A stretch of DNA of 64,000 bases, from positions 1-64,000 of the IMG/VR virus record IMGVR_UViG_3300020048_000096; one strand, 5' to 3'. The position numbers and the translations under genes were made by a program. Source of the DNA: an uncultured virus (IMG/VR IMGVR_UViG_3300020048_000096). Taxonomy: Duplodnaviria > Heunggongvirae > Uroviricota > Caudoviricetes. The notes beneath the pieces are model-generated. The model was not told the DNA's origin and searched no databases. It worked only from the letters and a program-made list of their open reading frames with translations. The first letter of the stretch is position 1; each line of letters starts with the position of its first letter. Shown piece after piece: positions 19,996 through 41,805 of this stretch.

Positions 19996-21612
19996 ATGAG
20001 TACACCGAGTTTGAATAACGGACTGTTTTTGAGAGATACCTCGTATAAGGTTTCGTCTCACGTTGATTCCTACCACTTAGTCAATATGCTAAAGTCCTCA
20101 GAGCCACAAGATTTAGGCCCTGTTGATTTATGGGCTATGGCGCAAAAAGTTGAAATGCCACTTTATCAAATGGCTAGTTTCGGCGGTAAGAACACACAAA
20201 TGATTGATAACCCAAGAGGTGAGTGGAAATGGCAAACTCCTATTGTTCAGGATTTACCTTACATCACAGAAGATGTTGAGCCAGGTACCCTGAAAATGGG
20301 CCAAGACGGAACAACCTTCAAAATCAAATCTAACAAGAAATTCGGTCACGGAGATATTGTTACTTATGACAAGTATAACGGAGCAGAGATGTACATCACT
20401 GCAGACGATATTTTACCTACTGGTGATGGATTTATCCACACTGTTCAGTTGGTAAACAATGAGAATTTGAAATTCTTAGACAAGAAATATTTGAAACCAG
20501 GAACCAAGCTTTTCAGAAAAGGTTCTGCCCGTGGAGAGTATGGAGAAAAATTCTCTGACATTGGTGAATTGTCAGCAGGTTACAGAGAGTTCTATAACTT
20601 CGTTGGTGGTGCTGAAGCGCACGTACATTATTCAGTTAGTTCTCGTGCAGAATTAATGTTGAAAGGTGGTATGAGTGCCAATGGTACAGTTCCTGTAACT
20701 GAAATCTGGAGATCATTTGATAAAAACTTAGACCCTTCGTTAACAAACTTAGATTCTATCGTTCAAAAGATGGGTAAAGAGTATGTGAAAAAAGCTTACG
20801 AAAGTGGCAAATTGACCAGAACATTCCTTACCAATCTTGAGGCAGCTCATTTAACCAAAATTGCAACTGACATCGAAACTTACTTAATGTGGGGACAAGG
20901 TGGTAGAATTAAGCAAGATGGTCCAGATGACATCAGATTGTCTGTCGGTTTATGGAAACAGTTAGATAACTCTTACAAGAGAATCTACAACAAAGGTTCT
21001 TTCACATTGGATTTATTCCGTTCTGAAATTTTTAACTTTTACAATGGTAAGGTTGAATTCAAAGGGCCAGACCCAAAACGTGAAATTATAGTTCAAACTG
21101 GTATGGCCGGTATGAAATTAGTAAACGCTGCAATTAAGAAAGAAGCGTATGATTCAGGATTGGTTCTTCACGCAAGTGATATGGGCGCAATCACTGGTAA
21201 AGGAATGGACTTAAACTTTGGTTTTGCGTTCACTTCTTACACGATTCCTTTCTTAGCGAACGTGAAATTTGTTTTGAATCCTGCTTTTGACAATGTTCAT
21301 ACAAATGATATTGAAAACCCAATCATTGATGGTTTCCCATTATCTTCTTACAACTTTATTGTGTTTGATATTACTGATGCCGGTCAAGATAACATTCAAT
21401 TATTGAAATTGAGCTGGGATAACCAATTAAAATGGTTCTACCAAAACGGTACAATGGATTACATGGGAAGAACTCAAGGGTTCTCTTCTTCAGGTAACTT
21501 TAATGGATACCGTGTATTTATGACACAAACAATGCCTGGTATATGGGTTAAAGATCCAACCAAAGTATTGAAAATCGTAATGAAGAATCCTATTACTGGA
21601 GGTAGTTTCTAA
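19996..21612 (+). CDS. major capsid protein (crAss-like)
   Basis: 538 aa; position, biased codon usage, YLMWG.GG and GIWVKDPTK motifs. Confidence 0.88.
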   Translation: MSTPSLNNGLFLRDTSYKVSSHVDSYHLVNMLKSSEPQDLGPVDLWAMAQKVEMPLYQMASFGGKNTQMIDNPRGEWKWQTPIVQDLPYITEDVEPGTLKMGQDGTTFKIKSNKKFGHGDIVTYDKYNGAEMYITADDILPTGDGFIHTVQLVNNENLKFLDKKYLKPGTKLFRKGSARGEYGEKFSDIGELSAGYREFYNFVGGAEAHVHYSVSSRAELMLKGGMSANGTVPVTEIWRSFDKNLDPSLTNLDSIVQKMGKEYVKKAYESGKLTRTFLTNLEAAHLTKIATDIETYLMWGQGGRIKQDGPDDIRLSVGLWKQLDNSYKRIYNKGSFTLDLFRSEIFNFYNGKVEFKGPDPKREIIVQTGMAGMKLVNAAIKKEAYDSGLVLHASDMGAITGKGMDLNFGFAFTSYTIPFLANVKFVLNPAFDNVHTNDIENPIIDGFPLSSYNFIVFDITDAGQDNIQLLKLSWDNQLKWFYQNGTMDYMGRTQGFSSSGNFNGYRVFMTQTMPGIWVKDPTKVLKIVMKNPITGGSF

Positions 21613-24756: not shown

Positions 24757-25314
24757 ATGGCAATAAAACATCACTTGTCGATTGACATTCCAGAAACAGC
24801 AAATAAATATACGCTTATTATTAAAGACGCGAGTATTTATGGCGTAAACCTACCAATAGAATGCAGGAGACTTGATATCTATGTGCCTGGATTTACCATA
24901 CCTGTTTACATTACAGAGCAGTCAGACGAGCCGTTCTTTAAGAATTTCAGCGCAAAAGACTTGGAATTACAACCATTAAACAATACAGATTTGTACCCAC
25001 TGCCTGATGGCGTATATAAAATTAAATATTCTACTGCTCCAAACGAGGTTGTATTTGTAGAGTATTATCATTTACGAGCTACTCAGTTGCTAGAAAAATA
25101 TTACAAAATGTTATGTAAAGTACAACTTGACAGCTATGAGCCAAATGCTTCTCAACATGAAAAATTACATGAACTTCGAGAAATCCGAATGTATATAGAA
25201 GCCGCTAAGGCAAAAACAGAATACTGTCATGCTCCTGAGAAAGGCATACAGCTTTTAACGGCCGCTAAAAAACTTTTAGAAAAGTTTGAAACGGGCTGTT
25301 ACTCAACTTGTTAA
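24757..25314 (+). CDS. putative tail hub / fibre-attachment protein
   Basis: LPDGVY.IKY motif, Cys-containing helical C-terminus; synteny. Confidence 0.55.
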   Translation: MAIKHHLSIDIPETANKYTLIIKDASIYGVNLPIECRRLDIYVPGFTIPVYITEQSDEPFFKNFSAKDLELQPLNNTDLYPLPDGVYKIKYSTAPNEVVFVEYYHLRATQLLEKYYKMLCKVQLDSYEPNASQHEKLHELREIRMYIEAAKAKTEYCHAPEKGIQLLTAAKKLLEKFETGCYSTC

Positions 25315-25692: not shown

Positions 25693-27519
25693 ATGACCCC
25701 TTTAAATACAACTCAAAACGAAACTTGCACACCTGTATCTTCTAAGTGTGTTATATGGCAAGGGCCTGATATTCCTTGTATTAATTTATGCAAAGGAGAT
25801 AGTATAGATGCTGTTGTAAGTAAGTTAGCTACCGTTTTATGCGAATCTTCTGTAGGAGCTTTTGATGTGTCTCGCGTAGATTTTGGATGCTTAACTTCTG
25901 CATACGCTTCTGAACCTGAGACTTTATTAGAGGTTGTACAAGCTATCATAGATAAGTCATGTACGATAGAAGAAGCTATCATAGCTGCTGGAATAGAAAC
26001 AAATCCAACTTATGGCGTTATCAGACTCCCTTCTTGCCTTCATTATACAAACCCTGAAGGAGACTTTATAGATGAATTAATGCCACAAGAGCATAGCAAA
26101 CATTTAGCTAATGTTATTTGTACTTTGATTTCAAATATTCAAAATATTCAGACGTCTTCGACATCTTTAACAACTCGTGTGAAAATTTTAGAAGACAATA
26201 AAAATAGTTCAAGCGGCTCTATTCCTACTGTTAAATTAACAGGAACTGGAAACATAGGCGCCGATTCTCCTATTCATTTGGCTTTAATGGCTTTTGAAGC
26301 AGATTATGTTAGCACTAGAAATACACTGGGAAACACAACTTCCATGGTGCAAAATATTGCAAAACAATGCACTTCAATAGGTTCTTCAAAACCTTTTAAC
26401 GGAGGGTTGTTAATGTCAAATATATCAGGATGGTCTGAGAATCCAGAAAACTTGAGCGAAGGATTTGGGAATCTTTGGATTGCCTTATGTGATATGAGAG
26501 CTGAAGTAACAAGACTTAAAGGAACAATAACACCTACTTGCGATAATTTTATTTTGAATTTTAATACCTTAATGAATAGTTCAAGAACTAGCGTAGATGT
26601 TGATTTTTATGGACTAACATTAGTTCCAGAAGGATGGGCTTCCGGTATTGGAGCTTCTGCAATTGCCCACCTTATTATTTCAGATGGTGCAAATAGTTAT
26701 GACCATTCGTTTGATTTTGGAAGTCAAATAGAAAATCAAAACTTAATGAATATTGATCTTGCTTCTCAGGGCATAAGTGCCACCAAGACATTATCATTCA
26801 CGTTAAACGCTACTGTTTTAAAAGACGCGATTGAGTGTTCTAAAACCGTGACAAAGTATTCTAACTATAATATTGATAATTGTATTAAGAATCCAATAAC
26901 ATTATTGGATGCAGTACAAACTCAATCTGGAATTACAGTTACTCATTCTGGGGTTGCTGCAGGTGGAGAGCCTGTTATTGACTATAGATTTGTAATTAAA
27001 GATCCTTCGAATGTTGTTGCTAGAACAATGAACGCATTTACGAATAATTTATTTATTTCAGTAAAGAACATGGTTACCGGAACTTATAAAGTTGAAGCTA
27101 CTGCTATTTATGCTTGTGGAAATTCGGAAACAGTTACAGAAACAGTGGCAGTCGTAGCTTGTATAGCTTCATATATTATACCGGAACAGATTTATACAAC
27201 ACCTGTTTATAATGGGTACACCGAAGGTGGCGGAACAGGACTGGTCATTAACGATATTCCTTATGTCGAAGGTGCTCAGTTGACGTACAACTCTAGATGT
27301 GACGGATCTTTCCGTGTTCAAATTGGAGTATCTGTAAATGTGGCTGAGAGAATGGGTCTTTTATACATAAACAATATTTTGGCTTTAATTGTAAGCACAA
27401 GAGGAGAGACTCACTTAGATACTATTTATTATGTACCTAATGGTGAGAGTCAAACATTTACTTTCAAGTACCTTCAATACCCTAGTGTAGTTCCTGAAAT
27501 AGGAAGTACGTTAATATAA
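25693..27519 (+). CDS. putative fibre/decoration protein
   Basis: Cys-rich N-terminal module (CV.W.GP.IP), coiled coil, Ig-like beta C-terminal domains. Confidence 0.65.
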   Translation: MTPLNTTQNETCTPVSSKCVIWQGPDIPCINLCKGDSIDAVVSKLATVLCESSVGAFDVSRVDFGCLTSAYASEPETLLEVVQAIIDKSCTIEEAIIAAGIETNPTYGVIRLPSCLHYTNPEGDFIDELMPQEHSKHLANVICTLISNIQNIQTSSTSLTTRVKILEDNKNSSSGSIPTVKLTGTGNIGADSPIHLALMAFEADYVSTRNTLGNTTSMVQNIAKQCTSIGSSKPFNGGLLMSNISGWSENPENLSEGFGNLWIALCDMRAEVTRLKGTITPTCDNFILNFNTLMNSSRTSVDVDFYGLTLVPEGWASGIGASAIAHLIISDGANSYDHSFDFGSQIENQNLMNIDLASQGISATKTLSFTLNATVLKDAIECSKTVTKYSNYNIDNCIKNPITLLDAVQTQSGITVTHSGVAAGGEPVIDYRFVIKDPSNVVARTMNAFTNNLFISVKNMVTGTYKVEATAIYACGNSETVTETVAVVACIASYIIPEQIYTTPVYNGYTEGGGTGLVINDIPYVEGAQLTYNSRCDGSFRVQIGVSVNVAERMGLLYINNILALIVSTRGETHLDTIYYVPNGESQTFTFKYLQYPSVVPEIGSTLI

Positions 27520-27525
27520 GTTATT

Positions 27526-29724
27526 ATGACAAAGGCCTGTAGAAAAAAAACATGTAAAGAGCCAGAACTTCAAATAGAGGTTCTGGCTCCGCCTTCGTGC
27601 GCAGTTGATGTATGTTCTGAGTTAATTGATGTGGCTTGCATTCGGCATTTCGGATATGTGATACCGGGACTTGGCCCAAATCCATCTACTTTGCAATTGA
27701 TACTTTTTATCAAAAAATTAATTGAAGAGTATCCTATATTAAGCATAGAGGACACCAACACAATAAATCAAATCATAGATACTGAACTGTCTATGCTTAT
27801 TCTTCGAGGGGATAATGTTGGCGAGGATGCTACAGGTTTATATTTTGTATTAACAGAGTCTATTATTATTAAGATAATAGATATACTCAAACTGGGATGC
27901 AGTATAGTTGGTACAGCAGTTTCAGCTACGGGATGTGAAATATCTGGAACGGCAAATGTTGCTACAGGATGTGAAATATCTGGAACAGCACTTTCTGTAA
28001 CGTTATGTGACATTTATGGAACGGCTATATTGGCTACAGGATGTGACATTTCCGGTACAGCATCGGTTGTTATAACTAGCACAACAACAACAAGTACAAC
28101 AACAAGCACATCAACCACAGTTACACCTACAACATCAACCACAGTTACACCTACAACAACAAGTACAACTGTTGCTCCTACAACAACAAGTACAACTGTT
28201 ACACCTACAACTAGCACTACTACAGCTGATATTCAAATTCCTAGTACAGTAGTATTAATTTTAGATAATGTATTAACTTTATCACCAGGAGAAATTATAG
28301 CAAATATAAGTTGGACTGAATCTACAGATAATGTAGGTATAGTTGACTATTTAATTTTTGTAGATCCTGAAGTAGAAGGTTTACCTGATTTATCTTTTTA
28401 TACTAGTAGTTTAGATTATATTTTAGAAGATTTACTTCCAGGTGCTTATTATAATGTAAATGTAAGAGCTATAGATGCAGCAGGTAATAAGGGATTAGTA
28501 AGTAATACTATTAGATTTTTAGCACCACAAACATCAACATCAACATCAACTACTACCACAGTAGAACCGACTACTACCACAGTAGAACCGACTACTACCA
28601 CAGTAGAACCGACGACCACAGTAGAACCGACTACTACCACAGTAGAACCGACGACCACAGTAGAACCGACTACAACAACGGTTGCTCCAACTACAACAGT
28701 AGCTCCTACAACGACAGTAGCTCCGACAACAACAGTAGCACCAACCTACGTTTCAGGTTCAGGGAATATACTAGATATATTCACTGTTGGGTCTATAATA
28801 GAAAAAGATATAAATTTAAACCTAGTTGGAACAGTGTCCTCAAACATGCCTGTTGCAGGAGATTTCTTATTCTCTACTAGTCACGAGAAACTCTTATTAT
28901 ACGGTACTCATGTCGCCCCTATGACGATGTACTTATCTACCGATTCTGGGGTTAACTATAATTCAATACAGAATGTCTCTAGCGGAACAGGAACTGTAGT
29001 GGCTGACTCATCACTTAGGTACATATACTACTCTGATATAAATAAAATAAATGGTAGTAAGCTATACAGGTCAGAGAACACAGGAACGTCCTTCTCACCT
29101 ATAACATTACTCAGCAGGACTGGTACCGTACCGTTCGGCTCACCTAATGCTCAAGGGAATGAAGTAATATCAAGAGATGGTAAATATTTGATATGTTATT
29201 GTCAGTCTAAAAACTTATTAAATACTGACCAATACCAAAATATTATGTTAACTAGTAATTATGGTGTTTCATTTGAGGATATAACAGAAATAATAGAACC
29301 AAGTGCAGGAAAATATACGTTTATTGATACTAGATATGGAATGTCTGGAACTGGAGAGTATATGTTTATAGTAGGTAGAAATTCCAATATATATTATAGG
29401 AGTATAGACTATGGGGTATCCTGGACAAAACCGATATTAACAGCATATCTTCAATCCGCTAAAATCAAAACATCATTTTCAGGACAATATATATTATCTG
29501 TTAGTTATAACTCTTCCAAGTATTCTATAAGTAATGATTACGGATTAACATTTATAGATTATACTCTTGGAGCTGTAAGACCAGAGAATTGCGATATCTC
29601 TAACTCAGGTCAATATATGATAATAGAAGCCTCGGCAGCATCTAAATATTATGTTTCTACAAATTACGGACTTAGCTTTACAACACATAATACAAATTTA
29701 TACTTAACACAAATAGTAGATTAA
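27526..29724 (+). CDS. modular fibre/adhesin: Cys module, 12-aa repeats, Thr-rich linker, FN3 domain, Thr/Pro repeats, BNR/Asp-box beta-propeller
   Basis: FN3 signature (SW..STDNVGIV.Y...L.PG..Y.V.VRA.DAAGN); Asp-box-like STDSGVNY, TSNYGVSF, SIDYGVSW, SNDYGLTF, STNYGLSF. Confidence 0.8.
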   Translation: MTKACRKKTCKEPELQIEVLAPPSCAVDVCSELIDVACIRHFGYVIPGLGPNPSTLQLILFIKKLIEEYPILSIEDTNTINQIIDTELSMLILRGDNVGEDATGLYFVLTESIIIKIIDILKLGCSIVGTAVSATGCEISGTANVATGCEISGTALSVTLCDIYGTAILATGCDISGTASVVITSTTTTSTTTSTSTTVTPTTSTTVTPTTTSTTVAPTTTSTTVTPTTSTTTADIQIPSTVVLILDNVLTLSPGEIIANISWTESTDNVGIVDYLIFVDPEVEGLPDLSFYTSSLDYILEDLLPGAYYNVNVRAIDAAGNKGLVSNTIRFLAPQTSTSTSTTTTVEPTTTTVEPTTTTVEPTTTVEPTTTTVEPTTTVEPTTTTVAPTTTVAPTTTVAPTTTVAPTYVSGSGNILDIFTVGSIIEKDINLNLVGTVSSNMPVAGDFLFSTSHEKLLLYGTHVAPMTMYLSTDSGVNYNSIQNVSSGTGTVVADSSLRYIYYSDINKINGSKLYRSENTGTSFSPITLLSRTGTVPFGSPNAQGNEVISRDGKYLICYCQSKNLLNTDQYQNIMLTSNYGVSFEDITEIIEPSAGKYTFIDTRYGMSGTGEYMFIVGRNSNIYYRSIDYGVSWTKPILTAYLQSAKIKTSFSGQYILSVSYNSSKYSISNDYGLTFIDYTLGAVRPENCDISNSGQYMIIEASAASKYYVSTNYGLSFTTHNTNLYLTQIVD
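27895..28074 (+). repeat. five 36-nt coding repeats (GCxIxGTAxxxT)
   Basis: Units start at 27895, 27931, 27967, 28003 and 28039. Confidence 0.85.
28531..28747 (+). repeat. TTTT/VEP and TTT/VAP mucin-like coding repeats
   Basis: 18/21-nt units such as actactaccacagtagaaccg. Confidence 0.9.
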
Positions 29725-29752: not shown

Positions 29753-31123
29753 ATGACACAAACAATCTTAATAACCCTTAACGCAGGGTTGAATACTTCT
29801 AATTTTTCGCTGTATTCCAATCTTGATGGATACCAGACAGCTTTTGAAATAAATGTATCGAGAGAGGATTTAGTAAACGGATACGTCTCCACCTTAGTTC
29901 CTTCTGGAGCTACAATTATAAGAGTTAAATCAAATTCTGATAATTGTACTAATTTTAGGGACATCACTATATCAGGAACTCCTACGACTGTTGCTCCTAC
30001 GACTGCAACTCCTACGACCGCAACTCCAACTACTGCAACTCCAACTACTGCAACTCCTACGACTGCAACTCCTACGACTGTTGCTCCTACGACTGCAACT
30101 CCTACGACTGTTGCTCCAACTACTGTTGCTCCAACTACTGCAACTCCTACGACGACGCCAGTCGGTGTTGCGAGTTATAATACTTTAACTAAAGGAGCTG
30201 GTTCTGTGAATGAAGGAGGAAGTATTTCATTTGAGTTAAATACTTCAAATATACCAAACGGAACAACCGTGGGGTGGACTATTACGGGAGTGTCTTCTGC
30301 TGATATCATTGGAGGTATTACAAGTGGAGTTTTTACAATAAATTCTAATGTTGGGTATGTAGGTGTTACTGTAAAAATTGATAATTTAACAGAGGGTCCT
30401 GAGACGCTTACTATGACTTTAAATGCAACTGATAGCGCTTCTCGTGCAACAGGAAGCTTAACGACTTCAGTACTTATAAACGATACTTCTCTTAATGCTA
30501 CAACGAGCACAACGTCTACAACCACAGTAGCTCCTTTACCAATGACTACTTATTGTTATAATGAACGTTGGACTTGTGATGATATAGAACACCCACTAGG
30601 AGGTGGAATCACTTATTGGGATGCTTATGGAGTAGAATATATTGAGTCAGGATTATGTTATGAAACAACCCAAAATGTATTAACATATTCATCTTCAGCA
30701 GTACCACAAAAAGTAGGATTAGACCTAATAGTATGTCCAACTTCTAGTTCAACGACTACTACAACTACTAGTACAACATTAGCACCATCTGCTGCAAATG
30801 TTGATTGTTCAAACTATGGTGTTGCTTTTGATAATTATTCACCAGGAGGTGCAAATGAATTTTCTGCAAATATCTATCTACCTGTAGCAGCTACAACCAA
30901 TTATGTATTTACAATTGCTTTTGAAGCAGATAGAACAGATACTCAGGGTACAATATTTGATAATATTACTATCAATATTGGCACAGGTCAGTTTTCAGGT
31001 AATGGAGTTAATAGTGCTGGATTATCTCAAGAAGTAGGTGAGAATTATACTATGGTTAGTTATAACATATTAAGTATAGTTCCAAATGATGGAAAATATA
31101 CATTTGATCCTTGTAATTATTAA
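29753..31123 (+). CDS. modular decoration/fibre protein with mucin-like repeats and Calx-beta-like domain
   Basis: PTT(A/V)(T/A) repeats; SVNEG.S..F.L.T.N...GT.V...ITG...AD...DNLTEG.ET. Confidence 0.75.
   Translation: MTQTILITLNAGLNTSNFSLYSNLDGYQTAFEINVSREDLVNGYVSTLVPSGATIIRVKSNSDNCTNFRDITISGTPTTVAPTTATPTTATPTTATPTTATPTTATPTTVAPTTATPTTVAPTTVAPTTATPTTTPVGVASYNTLTKGAGSVNEGGSISFELNTSNIPNGTTVGWTITGVSSADIIGGITSGVFTINSNVGYVGVTVKIDNLTEGPETLTMTLNATDSASRATGSLTTSVLINDTSLNATTSTTSTTTVAPLPMTTYCYNERWTCDDIEHPLGGGITYWDAYGVEYIESGLCYETTQNVLTYSSSAVPQKVGLDLIVCPTSSSTTTTTTSTTLAPSAANVDCSNYGVAFDNYSPGGANEFSANIYLPVAATTNYVFTIAFEADRTDTQGTIFDNITINIGTGQFSGNGVNSAGLSQEVGENYTMVSYNILSIVPNDGKYTFDPCNY
29978..30160 (+). repeat. 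15-nt tandem coding repeats (PTTAT/PTTVA)
   Basis: About a dozen units such as cctacgactgcaact and cctacgactgttgct. Confidence 0.9.
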
Positions 31124-31124
31124 T

Positions 31125-31820
31125 ATGAACAATAAAATGAAAGTTTTAATATTCTGCTCCTCTCACTATAAGAGAGGAGCTATGTTAAGATACGTTTTGT
31201 TAGATGCACTTAACCAAAGTCACAAAGATTTTACACTTGCTTTGAGCTTAAAGCTTGATGAACTTAAGCCGGAACTATATACAAGATTGGTGGATGACGC
31301 ATTAGATAGTAGAGTTGTTTATACAGAATTGATAAATCATAAGGTATGTTTTAGTCACTTTAATTTAATAGACACTATAAAATCAGTGCCAAATTATCAA
31401 GATTATGATATTTTTATAAAAATGGATGATGATGATATCCATAAGAAAGACTATGTAAAAAATATAGTAGAGTTTTTCAATGCAAATCCTGATGCTGATA
31501 TTATATCTTCTAAAATCTCCACGCAATTAAATGGGTATTCTTTATTTAAAAATGATCAAGGATATGAAACATTAGGAAGAATAATGGAAGGAGATAATTA
31601 TAATATGCCTATGACATTTGCTTTTAATAAAAAAGCACTTGATGCTATTATAAATTTAACCGCTGAAGATATAGGCGGAGAATGGGATGATATGGTGCAA
31701 AGAAAAACTTGGATTAAAGCGGGATTGGTACACAAAACTGTGGAAAATAAAGATAATATTATTTGGAATGTACATGGTAAAAATGCCAGCACCTCTGATT
31801 TTTTAATTTCACAAACTTAA
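31125..31820 (+). CDS. GT-A fold glycosyltransferase (GT2-like)
   Basis: KVLIF...KR..ML...L...LNQS N-terminus and IFIKMDDDD (DxD) motif; start trimmed to ATG 31125, just after the upstream stop. Confidence 0.75.
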   Translation: MNNKMKVLIFCSSHYKRGAMLRYVLLDALNQSHKDFTLALSLKLDELKPELYTRLVDDALDSRVVYTELINHKVCFSHFNLIDTIKSVPNYQDYDIFIKMDDDDIHKKDYVKNIVEFFNANPDADIISSKISTQLNGYSLFKNDQGYETLGRIMEGDNYNMPMTFAFNKKALDAIINLTAEDIGGEWDDMVQRKTWIKAGLVHKTVENKDNIIWNVHGKNASTSDFLISQT

Positions 31821-31824
31821 TATT

Positions 31825-32751
31825 ATGAGGTATATATGTGCACAACCTGCTACGCCTTATTACACATGGCAGGTTGAAGTATTAATAAACAACTTTAAAA
31901 AGCACGGTGTCAATCCTAATAAGATTGACATTCTGTGCGCTATAAAAAATGGAATTGTACCAGAAGAATGGAGAGATCTGCAAAGACATTACAATACCAT
32001 ACGTTTCTTTTTTTATGAAGACACAAGAACCAATCTAAGTTATGTGCCATCTGTGTATTTTAATCTGATGAGCAGTCACATGAAAGCCTGCCCGGAACTT
32101 AAAGAAGAACGCTTATTCCTTCACGATAGTGACATTGTTTTTACAAAAACTCCAGAAGTAACATGGGCAGATGAGAAAACATGGTATATGAGCGATACTA
32201 ATTCGTATATTAACTATGACTACATACAACAAAAAGGAAATGATATCTATGAGAAGATGTGTGAGATTGTAGGGATAGATTTATTAATTCCGAAATTGAT
32301 GAATAGTAATTCAGGTGGAGCACAGTATATTGTGCAAGGAGAGGGATTTGAATTTTGGGATAAAACAGAAAAAGACAGCGTTAGTTTGTATACTTATTTC
32401 TGTGAGCAGGAGCCTTTGTATATTAAGAAATACGAAGGAGATTTTCCAATACAAAAATGGACAGCGGGAATGTGGTCTTTACTTTGGAATGCCTGGGCAA
32501 AAGGCCATGAAACAAAAGTAGACCCTCGACTAAATTTCAGCTGGAGCACTGACAATTATTCAAGCATTGATAAGAATTTTATCTTACACAATGCGGGCGT
32601 AAGCGATACCATGAAAAGACTTTTTTTAAAATCGAATTACATGAATAAGCTCCCTTATTTTGAGAAATTAGATATAGACCAAGGAAAAGCAAGTTTTTAT
32701 TATTGGCAGCAATTAAAAGAAACGGCATTAGTAACCATATTAAAAAAATAA
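31825..32751 (+). CDS. GT-A glycosyltransferase resembling peptide O-glycosyltransferases (GT96 SERGT / GT95 HPAT-like)
   Basis: YYTWQ, FLHDSDIVF (DxD), GGAQY and KWTAGMW in the order of the SERGT/HPAT motifs as I recall them (YFDWQ, ILDADM, W.SEMY). Confidence 0.65.
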   Translation: MRYICAQPATPYYTWQVEVLINNFKKHGVNPNKIDILCAIKNGIVPEEWRDLQRHYNTIRFFFYEDTRTNLSYVPSVYFNLMSSHMKACPELKEERLFLHDSDIVFTKTPEVTWADEKTWYMSDTNSYINYDYIQQKGNDIYEKMCEIVGIDLLIPKLMNSNSGGAQYIVQGEGFEFWDKTEKDSVSLYTYFCEQEPLYIKKYEGDFPIQKWTAGMWSLLWNAWAKGHETKVDPRLNFSWSTDNYSSIDKNFILHNAGVSDTMKRLFLKSNYMNKLPYFEKLDIDQGKASFYYWQQLKETALVTILKK

Positions 32752-32754
32752 AAA

Positions 32755-33225
32755 ATGAGCAGTCCAGTACAAAACTCAACGACTCAGCCACCAACGACTC
32801 AGGCACCAACGACTCAGGCACCAACGACTTATTTGCCTGCACCTCCTGCGTGTGAAGGAGAGGAATGTGAAGAAATATATGACGTAAAATGCGTCACCTA
32901 TACCGGAGAGCCTATTCCGGGTCTTGACATTGAACCTGGAGATACTCTTGAAACTATTATTTCAAAATTAATCGAGTACATCTCTAAGGTGGTTGATATA
33001 TCGACATTAGATACCAATACTGTAGCGTTGCTCGGAGACGGAAGTTCTTCAGATCCACTTAAAGCTAATGCAAAAATAAGTACTATTAATGACAACTTTC
33101 TCACAGCAGAAGCAAATGGTATTGCGGTTGTAATAAACCAGGCTCTTGTTGAAAAAATGCTAGAAGTAATTATAGAAAATCCTACACTTCTCGAAGCCTT
33201 TAAAGGAATATCCATTACCGACTAA
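32755..33225 (+). CDS. small structural protein with (PTTQA)n and Cys module
   Basis: STTQPPTTQAPTTQAPTT then CEEIYDVKCVTYTGEPIPGL, paralogous to the N-termini of 25693 and 27526. Confidence 0.75.
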   Translation: MSSPVQNSTTQPPTTQAPTTQAPTTYLPAPPACEGEECEEIYDVKCVTYTGEPIPGLDIEPGDTLETIISKLIEYISKVVDISTLDTNTVALLGDGSSSDPLKANAKISTINDNFLTAEANGIAVVINQALVEKMLEVIIENPTLLEAFKGISITD

Positions 33226-33260: not shown

Positions 33261-33300
33261 GCCCTTTCCTTTTACATAGGGAAAGGGAGTGTTTAGTTTT
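33261..33300 (+). terminator. probable terminator
   Basis: ccctttcc/ggaaaggg stem then T-rich tail. Confidence 0.55.
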
Positions 33301-33377: not shown

Positions 33378-34748
33378 ATGAATCTTATACCTAAAGTTTA
33401 TCACTCCTTAACGGGTAAAAAATCAAATAAGCATAGTTCTGCACTCATAGGAATGAAAGAGCTTGAGTACGTAAAATTAAAAAAAGAAATAAAGCAAGTA
33501 TTAAAAAGAATAAATCCCGTATTAGAGTATGTTATTTTAGACGCTTTAAACAAAGAGTTGCTGCAAGGAATAGTATTTAGCCCAACAGTTAAAAGTTTTT
33601 CAAAAGAACTGCAAAATAAAGCCTCTGAAATATCTGAAGTATCAGAAAAATTAGAAACGTATTATGAAGAAGAAGGCTCTATTGTTTCACAACACAATAA
33701 TTTAGATAAAGGAGAAGCCACCATTACGGCTGTGGCTTTTGCAGAACCTAGAAGTGCAGAAGAAATAATTAAATTGCTAAAAATAGACATCTCAGTTTGG
33801 AGACTCTCTCAATACTGGAACAAAGAGAAAATGGGCCGCTGGTACGTGTCGGCTTTAGTTAGTAAGATTAACAAACAAAGCGCGACAGAAAAACCCATCA
33901 GCTTTTTAGACTCCCTTCTCTCACATCCCATCCCACAAATTCCTTACAAAAAATCCGAACTATTATCACTAATAACCAAGTCATCAAAAGACACTTCTTG
34001 TGGAGTTCTTGCAATTCAAGATTTGCATTTTGGAAAAGTAGGGAACTTAGACATTGATGAAATTTTATGGAACTGCGTGACAGACCTAATAAAACAATCC
34101 ACACCTACTAAGCATTTTGAGGAAATACTGTTCGTTGTCGGAGGAGATGCCCTGAACATGGATACTTGGGCCAATACCACTACTTCAGGAACTCCGATGG
34201 AAGGCGGTGGTGAAGGAGTTACCGATACTTATTTGAAGGCATATAATTCTTATGCAAGAGTCTTGCAATTTTTAAGTGGGTGTTGTGAGAAATTACGCGT
34301 AGTATTTGTACCGGGTAATCACGATAGATTAAGCAGCTTTCACATCACGCATGCTTTGCAAGTTAGTATGAGTTCTTGGAAAAACATTGAGTTTGTTTCT
34401 GAATATTCTGAAAGAAAAGTAATCACTTATGGTAAAAACTTCTTTGGGTTTGAACATGGAGACGTAAGTAAAGCTACCACGCCTTTAACATACGCTACAG
34501 AGTTTCCAAAACAGTGGGGCGAGACTTATTACAGAACCTTGTATACAGGACACTTGCATACCAAGAGAACAAAAATATTTGTGACAGAAAATGAGCTAAA
34601 CGGTTTTATCATTAAGATAGTGGCTTCTTTGTCCTCTACTGACTACTATCATTATCACAATAAGTGGACTGGAAATATTAGATCTGGTTCATTGGATGTG
34701 TACGAAAGAGAAAAAGGAAAAACAGCAGAATTTATATTCAACTTATAA
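33378..34748 (+). CDS. calcineurin-like metallophosphoesterase
   Basis: DLHFG, GGD..N.D, GNHD, EHGD and GHLH motifs. Confidence 0.85.
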   Translation: MNLIPKVYHSLTGKKSNKHSSALIGMKELEYVKLKKEIKQVLKRINPVLEYVILDALNKELLQGIVFSPTVKSFSKELQNKASEISEVSEKLETYYEEEGSIVSQHNNLDKGEATITAVAFAEPRSAEEIIKLLKIDISVWRLSQYWNKEKMGRWYVSALVSKINKQSATEKPISFLDSLLSHPIPQIPYKKSELLSLITKSSKDTSCGVLAIQDLHFGKVGNLDIDEILWNCVTDLIKQSTPTKHFEEILFVVGGDALNMDTWANTTTSGTPMEGGGEGVTDTYLKAYNSYARVLQFLSGCCEKLRVVFVPGNHDRLSSFHITHALQVSMSSWKNIEFVSEYSERKVITYGKNFFGFEHGDVSKATTPLTYATEFPKQWGETYYRTLYTGHLHTKRTKIFVTENELNGFIIKIVASLSSTDYYHYHNKWTGNIRSGSLDVYEREKGKTAEFIFNL

Positions 34749-35409: not shown

Positions 35410-36084
35410 ATGACTACAATAGGAGAAGCTATTTCGGGCGTTCGAAATATTTTAAAAAGCGTAAAGATAGACGCATTCCTCACGGACAGGCTTATTTATT
35501 CTTTATTGAAAAAACATAGCAGGTGGCTAGTGAGAAGAGAAGATTCGTCTAATAAGATAATGAAAATAAGCAGTTTGTTCCATTCGATTAATTTTGTGGA
35601 GCTTATTGAAATTGACAGCATCGACGTTCCTGAATTAGGACTTAGGACAGGTGTTACCATAAAAAGAACTGCCGAAAAAGTACCTTCTTTAATGGATGGT
35701 TATTTTGGTCCGCTGATTCGTTCTGTCACAAGCATTGATAGGGGAATTTCTTTAGTTCCGGTTTATCCTTCAGTATATGAACAAATTAGCAAGCAGAAAA
35801 CATTCAGATTTAATACTAAAAAATACTATTGGTTTTTAGACGGATATTTATATTTTCCTAATATTCAATGGGATGCAGTGCGTATAGAAGGTCTGTTTGA
35901 AAATGATTTAAGTTTTTATACAATAAACGGCGATGAAGATTGTAGGCCGATGCAACAAAGAAAATTAACCATTCCTGAATTTTTGTTGGGAGAGGCAACT
36001 GAACATGTTCGTAAAGAATTATTTACAATGCTTCAAATTCCATCAGACCAGCAAAATGACAACAAACATATTGTTAGACCTTAA
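35410..36084 (+). CDS. tail ring protein
   Basis: YY...GYLYFPN...V.IEG.FE; synteny. Confidence 0.65.
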   Translation: MTTIGEAISGVRNILKSVKIDAFLTDRLIYSLLKKHSRWLVRREDSSNKIMKISSLFHSINFVELIEIDSIDVPELGLRTGVTIKRTAEKVPSLMDGYFGPLIRSVTSIDRGISLVPVYPSVYEQISKQKTFRFNTKKYYWFLDGYLYFPNIQWDAVRIEGLFENDLSFYTINGDEDCRPMQQRKLTIPEFLLGEATEHVRKELFTMLQIPSDQQNDNKHIVRP

Positions 36085-37195: not shown

Positions 37196-40100
37196 ATGGC
37201 TAATACAAATAAAGAACAAGCTTCACAGCATCATACTAGCGTAAACAGTTTCTCAAAAGGAATGATTACGGACATGGATGCTCTTTATATAGGAGAAGGC
37301 GTATGGACGAGTGCAAGAAATGCAGTGAACAATTCTCATCTTGGAGAAGCTGGTGTTATAGGCAACGAACAATCTAACGTACTAATTACTAAGTCGACCT
37401 ACGACATCATAGGTTGTTTGCATAAAAACGATAGCGAGTGGCTTATTTTTTCAACAGACGATACCTATGGTGAAATTGGTATTTTTAATGAGCATGATAA
37501 AACTTACGTGCGTCTTGTAAATGACAACGGATTTAAGTTCAGTAAAAATAATCTTATTGGGGGCGCTGTTAAGAAAAATAAAGACTGTTCTTACAGTGTT
37601 TATTGGCAAGACAGATTGAATCCTGATCGCTTTATGAACCTTGATAAAATTCCATACTTGAAAACGGGTATTAATTTATCTAGTGATAAAGACTGCATTG
37701 TTCCTGAATATTCAAAAGGAATAAATGTTAAAAAATTATTACTGTCACCGATTGTAAGTGTGCCTCGAATTCGTACAAGTAAAGCAGGTGGCGGAGGGCA
37801 ATTGCTAAATGGTTCTTACCAAGTTTCAGTTGCTTATAGTGTAGAAGGCGTAAGGGTTACAAGTTATTTTGGCTCAGGAGAAATCCAACCATTGTGGAAT
37901 CATAGTGGTGCGGGCTCTTCTTTGGATATTTTAATAGAAGATGTCGACCTGGACTTTGACGAAATGGAAGTGGTTATCATAAGCACCATCAATGGACAGA
38001 CTGTTGCAAGAAAATTAGGAAATTACAGCACTCGTCAAAACAAAATTACAATAGACGCAATCAGTCAGGCGGCAGTGGTAATACCGTTGTCTGTTATTCC
38101 GTTGTCAAACCCTACTTATTACAGAAGTGATAACATGTTTACGCTGAACGGGTACTTACTTCGTTCTGGAGTAACAACCATCCCTGACTTTAACTATCAG
38201 CCTTTAGCAAATAACATTGTATCAAAATGGGTTGCTGTAGAATATCCCGCTTCTTATTATGAGAACGGCGGAAATAAAGCAGTGTATATGACTGACGAAG
38301 TGTATGCTTTTTTTATTCGTTGGATTTACAGTTCTGGAACAAAAAGCGCGTCATATCATATTCCTGGAAGAAAAGCTTTGGCCAGCGATTTGACTATTGC
38401 AACAGGAAAAGATATTCTTTCTGGAGAAACTAAGCAATGGCAAGTACAAAATACGGCGGCTCTTATTACAACACCTAAAGATCAGATATTACCTGACGGT
38501 GGTAAAGTAGTACTTACCGGAATCATGGCTTATACAGAGTCTTCTGAGAAGTACGTTGATACTAAGCCTGAAATATGGGGCGAACTATGTGGCAAGCAAA
38601 TTCGTCACCATAAATTTCCAGATAATTCACTGGTTAATATTCACGGAAAAGACGGAACGATTATTAATTTGCTTGGTGTAAAATTTGAAAACGTTCAGCA
38701 TCCAGTTGACATTAACGGGAATCCTATTGCCGATATTGTTGGTTATGAAATTCTAAGAGGAAGNNNNNNNNNNCCAAAGGCGTATTTAATAATCTTTGGG
38801 AATATGACATAGAAGGAAATGATACGGTCAAAGGTATTTATCAGAACTTTCCATATAACGACTTGCGACCTAACAAGCTTCTGAGAACAGTTTTGAAAAA
38901 AGACGGCGGAAACCGTCCGGATCATAACTCATCGGTTCCAAGCAAATTTAGAAAAGACATGTATTCTTTTCACTCTCCTGATACTACGTTTAATAAACCT
39001 TTTTTATCAGGATGTTATGTGAATTTATACACCCAAGAATCAGGAATTGCGAAGTCAAGATTTGAAATTCCTTTTGAACATCCTAAAGGAAAGCTTATCA
39101 CAGATGGTGCCTTTATTATGAGTGCTATCATAGGTCTTGGAATTGCTTTGCAATCAGCTATGGGAAAAATGAGTTTCAAAGGAGACCTTAAAGCTGGAGG
39201 GGGAGTTTCGCTTTTTGGATTGATAAAAGCAGACGCCAGTAAGGCAACTAGTGCAGGGTATGAAGGTGGTACAGGAAATCCACTTACATCAATTGTTCTG
39301 ACAGGCTTTAATACTCCAGCCTATACTATTGCATCACTTGTTGAAATTGCACCTAAAGTAATCTACTATGGAGCCCTGGGTGTGGATGCTGCTTTACAAG
39401 CAATGTATGCTTTCACGGGCTTTAAAGACTATGGCTTACAATTAAACTCTCATGCTTTTTATAATAAATCATCAGCATTAACTATAGGAAACAAACGTAG
39501 AAGCATACAACCTTCTTCAATTAAATATATAGATCCTTTTGTGCAGGATTTTTCTGCCACAGAACGCATCAACAATCTTTTCAGAAACAAATATGTAGCC
39601 ATAAAAATAGACGGTGAATTTTCAGTTCCTACTGTGCAGGATAACACTCGCTTTAGAGTACGAGACTTGACGGACAGTCCTCACTCAGAGCCATGGGAAA
39701 AGGAGTATAAAAGCACCACGTCAACTTTTTATGGTGCTTTGAAGTACACGTTCGACAACCAGTATGGACAATTAGAGTCTATTATTCAGATTCCACTTAA
39801 TGGAAAAGTGAATAAAACAAAAGCTGACAAGTATGGATTATTTTCATCAGAAATATCTTTCGGCGGAGATATCTATATCAATCGTTACACTGAGAAGAAC
39901 CCTTATATGTTTTTCAATACGTGGATGCAAGGGCAACAGCCAGGCACCGAATTCAATTATAAGAATTACATCAACGGTCCCGCCCCAAGATACTGGGCTA
40001 ACTTTAACAAGTATGACATGGCTGATTTTAATCTTCAAGTTAAAATTAAGTTGAAAGGAAGTAAAATCACAATGAACACACCAAGTGACTTTCATCATTT

Positions 40101-41805
40101 AGATAGAGATGAAAAGGATAGTGCTAGTTGGTTTATGTTAAAACGTTCATGGTTTTATTTAAGCTACAATGGCGTTCGTGATTTCTTTGTGGAATCTGAA
40201 ATAAATTTAGCACATCGAGATTACGGCGAGAAGCCAACAGAGCGCCACTATGATGCATCTGGATATACGGACTTGAAAGAGATGTTTCGTTCTGACAGAA
40301 TTACTGCGGGAAATTATTACAAGTATGATTTTTCTTTAAGCGCCTCTAAAGTATTTAATAATTTTATCAGTTGGGGAAGTCTGCTTCCTTCTACGTTTGA
40401 TCCTTATGTATCTGCTACTTGTTATCAGTACTATCCTAAGCGTGTGGTGTATTCATTGCAGGCTCATAATGAAGATAAGCAAGACCAATGGAGGCAATAT
40501 TTAGCAAACAACTACAAAGATTTTAACCACAAGGTAAATCAAATTAAGGCGTTAAACGAAACAGGAAGTTTAATTTTATTTGAAAACGGAGAGCCTCTGT
40601 TATTTAGAGGCATTGATACATTGCAATCTACCGGAAATATTAAATACGTTGTTGGCGATGGTGGTTTATTTTCTGACAGTACAGTTCAAGGAATTGTAAA
40701 TGCCGATGACAGTTTAGAATATGGTAGTTGCCAATCGCTTCGAGGAGCTATAAATACTCCTTATGGATTGTTTTATATTTCTCAGAAAGCAGGCAAGATA
40801 GATTTGTTTGACGGAAGTTCTATTAAAGACATATCGAGAGGTTTAAAATTCTGGTTTGCTGATAATTTACCAAGTAGGTTACTGGCGGACTTCCCAGACT
40901 TTCCATTGGCTGATAATCCGGTACACGGCGTTGGCTGTCAAACTATTTATTGCAGTCGCTACGAGCTTGTATATTTCTGCAAAAAGGATTACAAGCTTAT
41001 TAAAGAAGGATTGAAGATGGACTCTAAAGGTTTTTACTACATTGAAAACACGAGAGTCGATGTGAAGCTTGGCGATCCTTTGTATTTTGAAGACTGTTCT
41101 TGGACGCGTAGCTACGACCCTAAAACAAATTCATGGTTGTCTGCACACGACTGGCACCCTGGTTTGGTGATACCTTCCTACAACGGATTTATAACAATCA
41201 AAGAAGACGGGTTTTGGAAACACAATGACTGCTTTACATCGTACTGTAATTTCTACGGAAAGGATTATCCTTTTGAAGTGGAGTTCACTGCAAGTACAGG
41301 CGTGACTGCGACGACTTTAAAAAGTGTTGAATACACTCTTGAGAACTATCGCTACCACAACGATGGCAAAGACGGGTACATGATTTTAGACCACAACTTT
41401 GACAGAGCTGTACTTTACAACAACGAACAGATTTCAGGATGGTTGAAGTTAAACATCACGCCTAAGAACAATCCTATGGCTATTTTGAAATATCCGGCCA
41501 TCAACGGTTCCTTTATAGATATTCTTTACAGTAAAGAGGAAAACAAATACCGATTCAATCAGTTTTGGGACATCACAAAAGACCGTGGGGAATTCACGAA
41601 CAATGCTGTACCTATGTGGAAGACGAGAGCCAACGGATATGAAAAAACCGTAAACCCTGTGGCAGTAGACTATTCTAAGAAAGCCACAGAGCGTAAGAAA
41701 TTTAGAAACTATAACAACAGCGTTCTTCTCAGAAGAAATATAAGCGGTGACGTGAAAATGTTGTTGAAAGCTTTTAGTATTAAACAAACTCCAAGCGCAA
41801 GATAA
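37196..41805 (+). CDS. tail stabilisation / muzzle protein (one gene split by the N gap at 38764-38773)
   Basis: NSF.KGM..D N-terminus; sequence after the gap reads KGVFNNLWEYD...YNDLRPNK into the 38863 ORF frame; W.S.HDW.P motif. Confidence 0.75.

Follow-up and report, generated by a model that had tools for sequence, protein, structure and literature searches.

The gene and its cassette in a crAss-like phage genome

The gene at 31825–32751 of the window (the whole 64,000-nucleotide stretch analyzed here) lies on the plus strand, as do the capsid, ring, and cassette features and the motifs located below, and runs from an ATG start through its stop codon to encode a 308-residue GT-A glycosyltransferase of the phrog_4417 family. 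The source is a linear virus record, 75,594 bases long and an estimated 62% complete, and its crassvirus genes for the major capsid protein (19996–21612; PF23898, E 6.5e-29), the tail ring protein (35410–36084; PF25702, E 5.6e-18), and the muzzle mark the phage as crAss-like, a grouping that points to a host among the Bacteroidota. A run of unknown bases at ~38770–38790, probably an assembly gap, splits the muzzle-like gene into 37196–38812 and 38863–41805. One DNA sequencing run and no RNA run was listed as containing the sequence, and a promoter scan was near chance (43 vs 34.3 ± 5.2).

The enzyme gene sits in a tightly packed block in which genes are separated by 3–28 bases, apart from one nominal overlap, and which is closed by a terminator-like 10-pair hairpin (33262–33287; a consensus match only). 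Thr or PTT tracts were found in only 3 of the 80 ORFs of at least 80 residues in the genome sequence searched, and all three of these ORFs flank the enzyme gene; the Pro/Thr-rich neighbors reported in the preliminary description of this DNA are thus present. These candidate acceptors are a 732-residue protein (27526–29724) with Thr-rich linkers (28069–28227 and 28531–28746) around an FN3 domain, a 456-residue protein (29753–31123; 12 PTT units) with a PTTAT/PTTVA array (29978–30157) and Thr/Ser runs (30491–30529 and 30740–30781), and, directly downstream of the enzyme gene, a 156-residue protein (32755–33225) with N-terminal PTTQA repeats (32779–32829) and a Cys-containing module. Two to four Thr codons are used per tract. 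The 732-residue protein, which has a Cys-containing N-terminal module and a weak BNR repeat match near its C terminus, is probably a fiber or decoration protein, and the 156-residue protein has weak PDB matches to phage tail fiber or spike chains. Its Cys-containing module is common to the 732-residue protein (E 2e-9) and to the product of a conserved gene upstream of the cassette (25693–27519, plus strand, 608 residues; E 2e-5). Searches of Pfam, PHROG, and PDB chains gave no firm particle annotation for the local Thr-rich proteins. Before its first Thr linker, the 732-residue protein carries several short GC[ED]ISGTA-type repeats (27800–28060).

Directly upstream of the enzyme gene is an ORF for a GT2-like glycosyltransferase (31086–31820; PF00535, E 7.7e-5, 23.1 bits against a cut-off of 23.3), a candidate chain-extending enzyme with 146 homologs, many of which match PF00535. 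Its true start is probably near 31125–31137, because most homologs cover 83–96% of the ORF. A metallophosphoesterase/exonuclease-like gene (33378–34748; phrog_704), present in some relatives only, directly follows the cassette.

The six dereplicated relatives fetched with the gene at 24757 kept the flanks, including the conserved 608-residue gene, and lacked both the enzyme gene and strong tracts. Conversely, the closest enzyme homologs (~70%) came from loci in which hardly any of the flanking core genes are present. The cassette is therefore variable and appears to move between phages.

Fold, active site, and relation to HPAT and SERGT enzymes

The 308-residue protein matched phrog_4417 with E 1.8e-65 (residues 1–300 on positions 1–291 of 293), a family whose members include bIL285 Orf45 and phiCTP1 gp19 and whose annotated function is "unknown". 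A Pfam scan of the protein up to E 1 gave no match, an NCBIfam scan gave nothing, and sequence searches of solved structures returned chance-level matches only; an Atlas search gave, as a lead, a match to DUF7164 (score 0.96). We compared an AlphaFold model built on 142 sequences (pLDDT 97.6) with 48,161 solved chains. Glycogenin was the best match (Z 15.1, rmsd 3.5, 222 residues aligned), followed by LgtC (Z 15.0), Gat1 (Z 15.0), UGGT (Z 14.6), and WbbM (Z 14.5); the first 25 fold matches were all glycosyltransferases by title, and Foldseek was concordant. We confidently assign the modeled protein a GT-A glycosyltransferase fold nearest to those of GT8 and GT24, which are retaining enzymes, and the structural check proposed in the preliminary description accordingly bore out a glycosyltransferase. 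Strand 1 of the model begins at residue 2, without an N-terminal extension, and the model has no membrane segment. The likeness to GT8/GT24 enzymes (glycogenin, LgtC, Gat1, and the UGGT catalytic domain; Z 14.6–15.1) includes a DxD and a C-terminal His, whereas identity is 8–14%, the 308-residue protein has no DQD motif, and the profile match covers the N-terminal 90 columns only: GT8 (PF01501) gave no Pfam match and a profile-profile probability of 47.5% over those columns, with a shallow control of five sequences.

The four motifs previously noted each occur once and in the order given: YYTWQ (residues 12–16; 31858–31872), LHDSDIVF (99–106), GGAQY (164–168; 32314–32328), and WTAGMW (212–217; 32458–32475). 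LHDSDIVF contains the DxD motif (D101-S-D103; 32125–32133), which follows the strand at 96–100, and a fifth motif, HNAG (255–258; 32587–32598), lies beyond these four. Conservation carries the motifs beyond chance, as W15, D101, D103, G164–Q167, W212, M216, and W217 are kept in 121/121 close homologs, and both H255 and K269 in 120/121 (one gap). A DxD, a G-loop, and a C-terminal His are described as shared features of GT-A enzymes (PMC7185993), and conserved residues stand at the corresponding positions of the model (D101/D103, G164-G165, and H255). By GT-A rules (PMC7185993), the enzyme would be metal dependent, with the DxD as metal/diphosphate site, GGAQY as G-loop, and His255 as the C-terminal metal-binding His. 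There is no acid at 215–216, in a helix that we equate by inference with the helix of the xED motif, the catalytic base of inverting enzymes; retaining GT-A enzymes are described as variable at the xED position (PMC7185993). With GT8/GT24 as the nearest folds and no acid at 215–216, the enzyme probably uses a retaining mechanism.

The preliminary description had likened the protein to the plant and algal peptide O-glycosyltransferases SERGT (GT96) and HPAT (GT95), represented here by PF23452, and had proposed a search with GT95/GT96 profiles. That search went against membership. Apart from the 308-residue protein, which had no Pfam match, only 2 of 113 family members in one set (21.9 and 13.5 bits) and 0/47 in another matched PF23452 at all, and the best match (E 1.3e-4, profile positions 9–230) stayed at 21.9 bits, below the cut-off of 23.9. 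As PF23452 controls, we fetched 67 metagenome loci by a pattern of two of the motifs in the preliminary description, and an ORF with the motif was present in 67/67. All seven of the fetched controls that were scanned passed the Pfam cut-off (62–140 bits). We take an 862-residue two-domain control protein to be of the SERGT type and the remaining controls to be algal. An ShK-like domain lies behind the catalytic domain in 5 of the 7 scanned metagenome proteins (L167, L169, L175, L179, and L214).

Profile-profile comparison of 13 PF23452 domains with a 90-sequence family profile gave a probability of 90.4 (E 1.4e-6) over 253 columns at 15% identity, and this alignment placed YYTWQ/YFDWQ, DSD/DAD, GG/GG, WTAGMW/WISEMY, HNAG/HYG, and F-x-K in register. 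Larger sets reached a probability of 92, compared with 0.5–0.7 for a reversed profile, at most 0.7 for 30 column shuffles, and 0.3 for a GT2 control. These probabilities are to be read with the selection of the controls by two of the motifs in mind: the part after the DxD alone gave 2.6%, in the correct register and with a score of 21.3 (20 shuffles reached 15.8 at most); probabilities were also low for the close clade by itself, at 6–7%, and for narrow subfamily profiles, at 7–18% each.

We also modeled a SERGT-type domain (L174:803–1717, m5ca3f03b8585; pLDDT 80) and searched with it in the reciprocal direction. The first viral match was A0A6J5SW30 (E 1.4e-10, TM 0.57; next match, 5.3e-9), which was also the first match of the 308-residue protein's model (TM 0.94); a second family relative, LP65 Orf49, ranked 46th. 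No solved HPAT or SERGT structure was found by title in the fold searches. The SERGT-type domain itself models as GT-A (glycogenin Z 15.3, rmsd 3.5, 215 residues aligned), in contrast to the novel fold predicted for GT96 in PMC8476585. As no more than a lead, the Atlas assigned 19 of 30 named matches to the HPAT set (score 0.97). When whole genomes were searched with PF23452 and PF23741, neither the phage's own genome nor 49 genomes with family members gave a match, but positive controls were equally silent, which makes these searches uninformative. Published accounts relate HPATs to GT8 and GT95 to GT96 (PMC4908140, PMC8012813), which fits the homology and the GT8-like fold found here.

On these sequence comparisons, the phrog_4417 family is a true but remote homolog of PF23452 that stands outside its membership. 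What survives of the likeness first proposed is homology, with motifs in register and a reciprocal first fold match; what does not is membership, because the phage protein falls short in Pfam score, has Gly for the acid of W..EMY, and is a soluble single domain without the type II membrane anchor described, together with an ER/Golgi location, for PF23452 proteins (PMC8012813, PMC4908140). HPAT (GT95) and SERGT/SGT1 (GT96) share with it a GT-A fold near GT8, the YxxWQ, DxD, GG, and WxxxM[WY] motifs, the His, F-x-K, and presumably a peptide hydroxyl as acceptor. They differ in that the phage enzyme, still a prediction, would work in a prokaryotic cytoplasm in place of the ER/Golgi and on Thr runs in place of Ser-Hyp. 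The ~15% identity is too low to support a direction of transfer.

At position 215, the Glu of WISEMY aligns with Gly, a difference that the preliminary description had passed over. Gly is present here in 121/121 close homologs and 80/80 viral loci, whereas Asp or Glu occupies the position in 127 of 149 aligned distant stretches (17 have Gly), 78/80 genome loci, and 6/6 isolate phages, and the Glu of W..EMY is invariant in 13/13 PF23452 domains. The full-length match to phrog_4417 therefore joins isolate-phage members with Glu215 to a clade with Gly215. We used a midpoint-rooted tree of 254 family sequences, with close homologs thinned, solely to follow the Gly215 pattern; of its 45 Gly tips, 37 grouped in one clade (support 0.98) and 8 fell outside. 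Because every other site residue is fixed, Gly215 would reflect an altered donor or mechanism rather than decay, and the sequence pattern suggests that the Gly215 clade uses another donor than the Asp/Glu members. Having lost an acid that most distant members and the isolate phages keep, enzymes of the clade could also be slow, altered, or partner-dependent.

Pairing of the gene with Thr tracts in other genomes

The phrog_4417-type family forms 964 clusters at 50% identity (E 0.001), and a word-indexed search recovered 687 homologs among 933 candidates. Its members are spread over Bacteroidota and Firmicute phages and chromosomes, and longer ones are fused to GT2, GT6, GT7C, GT25, GT29, methyltransferase, formyltransferase, or radical SAM domains. 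Homologs are carried by 77 annotated phage records (tblastn, E 1e-3), mostly of Lactobacillus, Enterococcus, Staphylococcus, Lactococcus, and Clostridium phages; among the 60 matches listed, identity was below 40% and nearly all were labeled hypothetical, and isolate-phage proteins were 30–39% identical to the 308-residue protein. The Bacillaceae members (L099, L102, L103, L108, and similar, from 6001) are ~340–365 residues long, with ~50 extra C-terminal residues relative to the core domain. A literature search that left most subscription papers outside its reach found no title or abstract on the family, and 0 papers for HPAT, arabinosyltransferase, and bacteriophage combined.

Thr tracts accompany the gene in most of the phage loci. 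Among 29 viral loci retained from 80 after dereplication, with 4 kb on both sides, tracts lay upstream in 27, downstream in 2, and on the opposite strand in 0, and were lacking in L048 and L069; the gene directly upstream of the enzyme gene had a tract in 52 of 73. Tract proteins from aquatic viral loci had no firm particle annotation at E 1e-8 in 10 of 12 cases. A further 80 genome loci were grouped by hand, with 14 in neither group (L087–L094, L096, L098, L101, L134, L139, and L142). The Firmicute loci had a Thr run in 35/36, at the C terminus in 34, and scanning 40 of their Thr-run proteins gave 15 major head proteins, 17 major tail or tube proteins, 2 adaptors, 5 members of phrog_749, and 1 unassigned. 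Tracts were likewise present in 6/6 isolate-phage loci examined, of the 77 records.

Genomes chosen independently of the enzyme served as controls (~20 kb per genome, kinship ignored), with the tail ring gene as one anchor and the gene at 24757 as a second. Among ring-anchored relatives, 1 of 38 had both the gene and strong tracts and 37 had neither, three of these negatives having weak tracts; the set numbers 38 after exclusion of L254, which has only 3 kb upstream, and the associated p value of 0.026 is for 39. All six second-anchor relatives had neither gene nor strong tracts. The major tail protein of bIL285 ends in a Thr run, and 6/6 examined homologs of this tail protein (of 203 records) had neither a Thr tail nor the gene within 14.5 kb; the host genera of these six are absent from the 77-record phage tally. 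In the accessible part of a low-complexity survey, Thr tracts are not linked to phage glycosylation (PMC6821194).

Chromosomal Bacteroidota loci present a different arrangement. Tracts were missing in 28 of 30, the members were mostly GT fusions, a peptidase-exporter-like gene was recognized by motif in the flank sequence examined of 15 of the 30, and the scanned members adjoin radical SAM, LanM-like, and TIGR04157-like genes. Such peptide-maturation clusters around tract-less members still point to peptide acceptors. At L124 (5596–7725), the gene directly upstream of a GT fusion encodes a precursor that has a pinensin leader and ends with a Thr/Ser run, an arrangement of sequences that suggests O-glycosylated lanthipeptides; GT fusions in ribosomal-peptide clusters are also found at L095, L106, L107, L113, and L120. 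The neighbors of the tract-less member at L048 (3894–10869) are GT2-like genes and a fusion that contains an Aah/TibC-type O-heptosyltransferase domain.

A proposed role in particle glycosylation and its alternatives

We propose, with a probability of about 0.6, that the gene encodes a cytoplasmic enzyme that O-glycosylates the phage's own Thr-rich particle proteins. This reading of sequences and models builds on the computed fold, the conserved DxD, G-loop, and C-terminal His, the homology to PF23452, and the co-occurrence of the gene with Thr tracts in unrelated phages. A soluble, metal-dependent GT-A enzyme would be made together with the structural genes, would draw a nucleotide sugar from the host cytoplasm, and would attach the initial sugar to hydroxyls of Thr (and Ser) within the Thr-rich linkers of the proteins encoded at 27526, 29753, and 32755; the GT2-like neighbor may lengthen the chain. 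The three local proteins would be parts of the particle, and the enzyme presumably initiates rather than extends. Protease shielding, linker stiffening, and surface masking or adhesion are candidate benefits. The parallel with peptide O-glycosyltransferases drawn in the preliminary description is kept in that gene context points to peptide acceptors, but these look like Thr runs, often Pro-free, and not like extensin-type Ser-Hyp.

The same Thr-rich proteins could be modified without initiation by this enzyme, if the GT2 neighbor or a host enzyme adds the first sugar or if the Gly215 form has weak activity and serves chiefly to bind the tract on behalf of a partner. Such a role would suit the Gly that replaces Asp/Glu at 215, the chain-extending GT8 enzymes among the nearest solved folds, and the GT2 gene that lies between the tract genes and the enzyme gene here, in L001–L003, and in L032. 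However, no other GT is annotated in the Firmicute isolate-locus stretches inspected, the GT2 homolog is absent from 6 of 10 close loci checked, the DxD, His, and Lys remain constant although Gly215 is found again beyond the main clade, and the PF23452 relatives are described as initiating enzymes (PMC8012813, PMC4908140); we consider a purely extending or helping role unlikely. Equally, the tracts might be merely co-inherited with an enzyme that glycosylates phage DNA or a host surface structure. Phage glycosyltransferases are known to act on DNA and on host serotype (PMC12619734), the L048 glycosyltransferase cluster has no tracts, and partner genes could be unseen in a genome that is 62% complete. 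We regard this as quite improbable, given that the gene occurs, in crAss-like, siphovirus, and herellevirus genomes, within structural blocks and next to non-homologous Thr-run proteins, that tail and gene are absent together in the tail-protein homologs, and that the model lacks a membrane segment.

Two further accounts concern the chemistry. The fold list contains GlcNAc-1-phosphotransferase and nucleotidyltransferase folds (Z 9–10), and the donor-side acid is lost, as might be expected if the same fold decorated the Thr tracts not with a simple sugar but with, for example, a sugar phosphate or a nucleotide-activated polyol; those folds nevertheless trail GT8/GT24 by ~5 Z units, profile comparison places a family of sugar transferases closest, and the fusion partners are mostly GTs, which leaves this account very improbable. 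Scarcely credible is a recently acquired green-alga GT96/GT95 gene that keeps extensin-type chemistry (Gal on Ser beside Hyp, or Ara on Hyp). Its motifs in register and the reciprocal top fold match would be explained, but identity is 15%, Pfam scores stay below the cut-off, the family is spread over both Bacteroidota and Firmicute phages and chromosomes, and many tracts are pure Thr/Ser without Pro. Moreover, SGT1 is described as requiring Hyp (PMC4908140), and neither Ser-Pro4 in the local tracts, as a Ser-Hyp4 acceptor would call for, nor a PF13640 2OG-Fe(II) oxygenase in the available, 62% complete genome sequence was found.

This analysis newly links the family to PF23452 members by profile and reciprocal fold search, recognizes the Gly215 clade, and adds the context of peptide clusters; it also supplies a non-plant relative for GT95/GT96. 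Particle glycosylation by this enzyme, if true, would extend the phenomenon to crAss-like, siphovirus, and herellevirus lineages, cultured carriers of which exist, would give a function to a family of 964 clusters, and would offer a small soluble enzyme recognizing a Thr tag that is useful for making O-glycoproteins in bacteria. Only tentatively do we join these strands into a wider picture, in which the family is a prokaryotic/viral sister group, and maybe the source, of the plant and algal extensin-initiating enzymes; in which it is a portable one-gene system able to glycosylate, in the bacterial cytoplasm, whatever protein carries a short run of Thr, so that sugar-coated particles would be common among dairy, soil, and aquatic phages; and in which bacteria took it over to make glycosylated ribosomal peptides and the donor of the Gly215 clade is not that of the other members.

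Freeman et al. reportedly described virion glycosylation in the mycobacteriophages Che8, Corndog, and Myrna in 2023. In mycobacteriophages, phage glycosyltransferases add glycans to the C termini of capsid and tail tube proteins, and in the accounts consulted it is for these phages only that particle glycosylation by phage enzymes is documented (PMC12619734, PMC12363180). No Mycobacterium phage is among the 77 tblastn records (E 1e-3), and the mycobacteriophage enzymes would therefore be of a different family at that sensitivity. The likeness is that Firmicute members of the phrog_4417 family accompany Thr tails at the C termini of these two proteins, capsid and tail tube; the differences are long Thr tracts, their place here in internal linkers of accessory proteins, and a glycosylation that is a prediction. 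In the record of Enterococcus phage phiFL2B (L083:5001–5909), the family homolog gp49 is itself labeled major tail protein, but that name seems to belong to gp48, which is encoded upstream and has a Thr tail at its C terminus.
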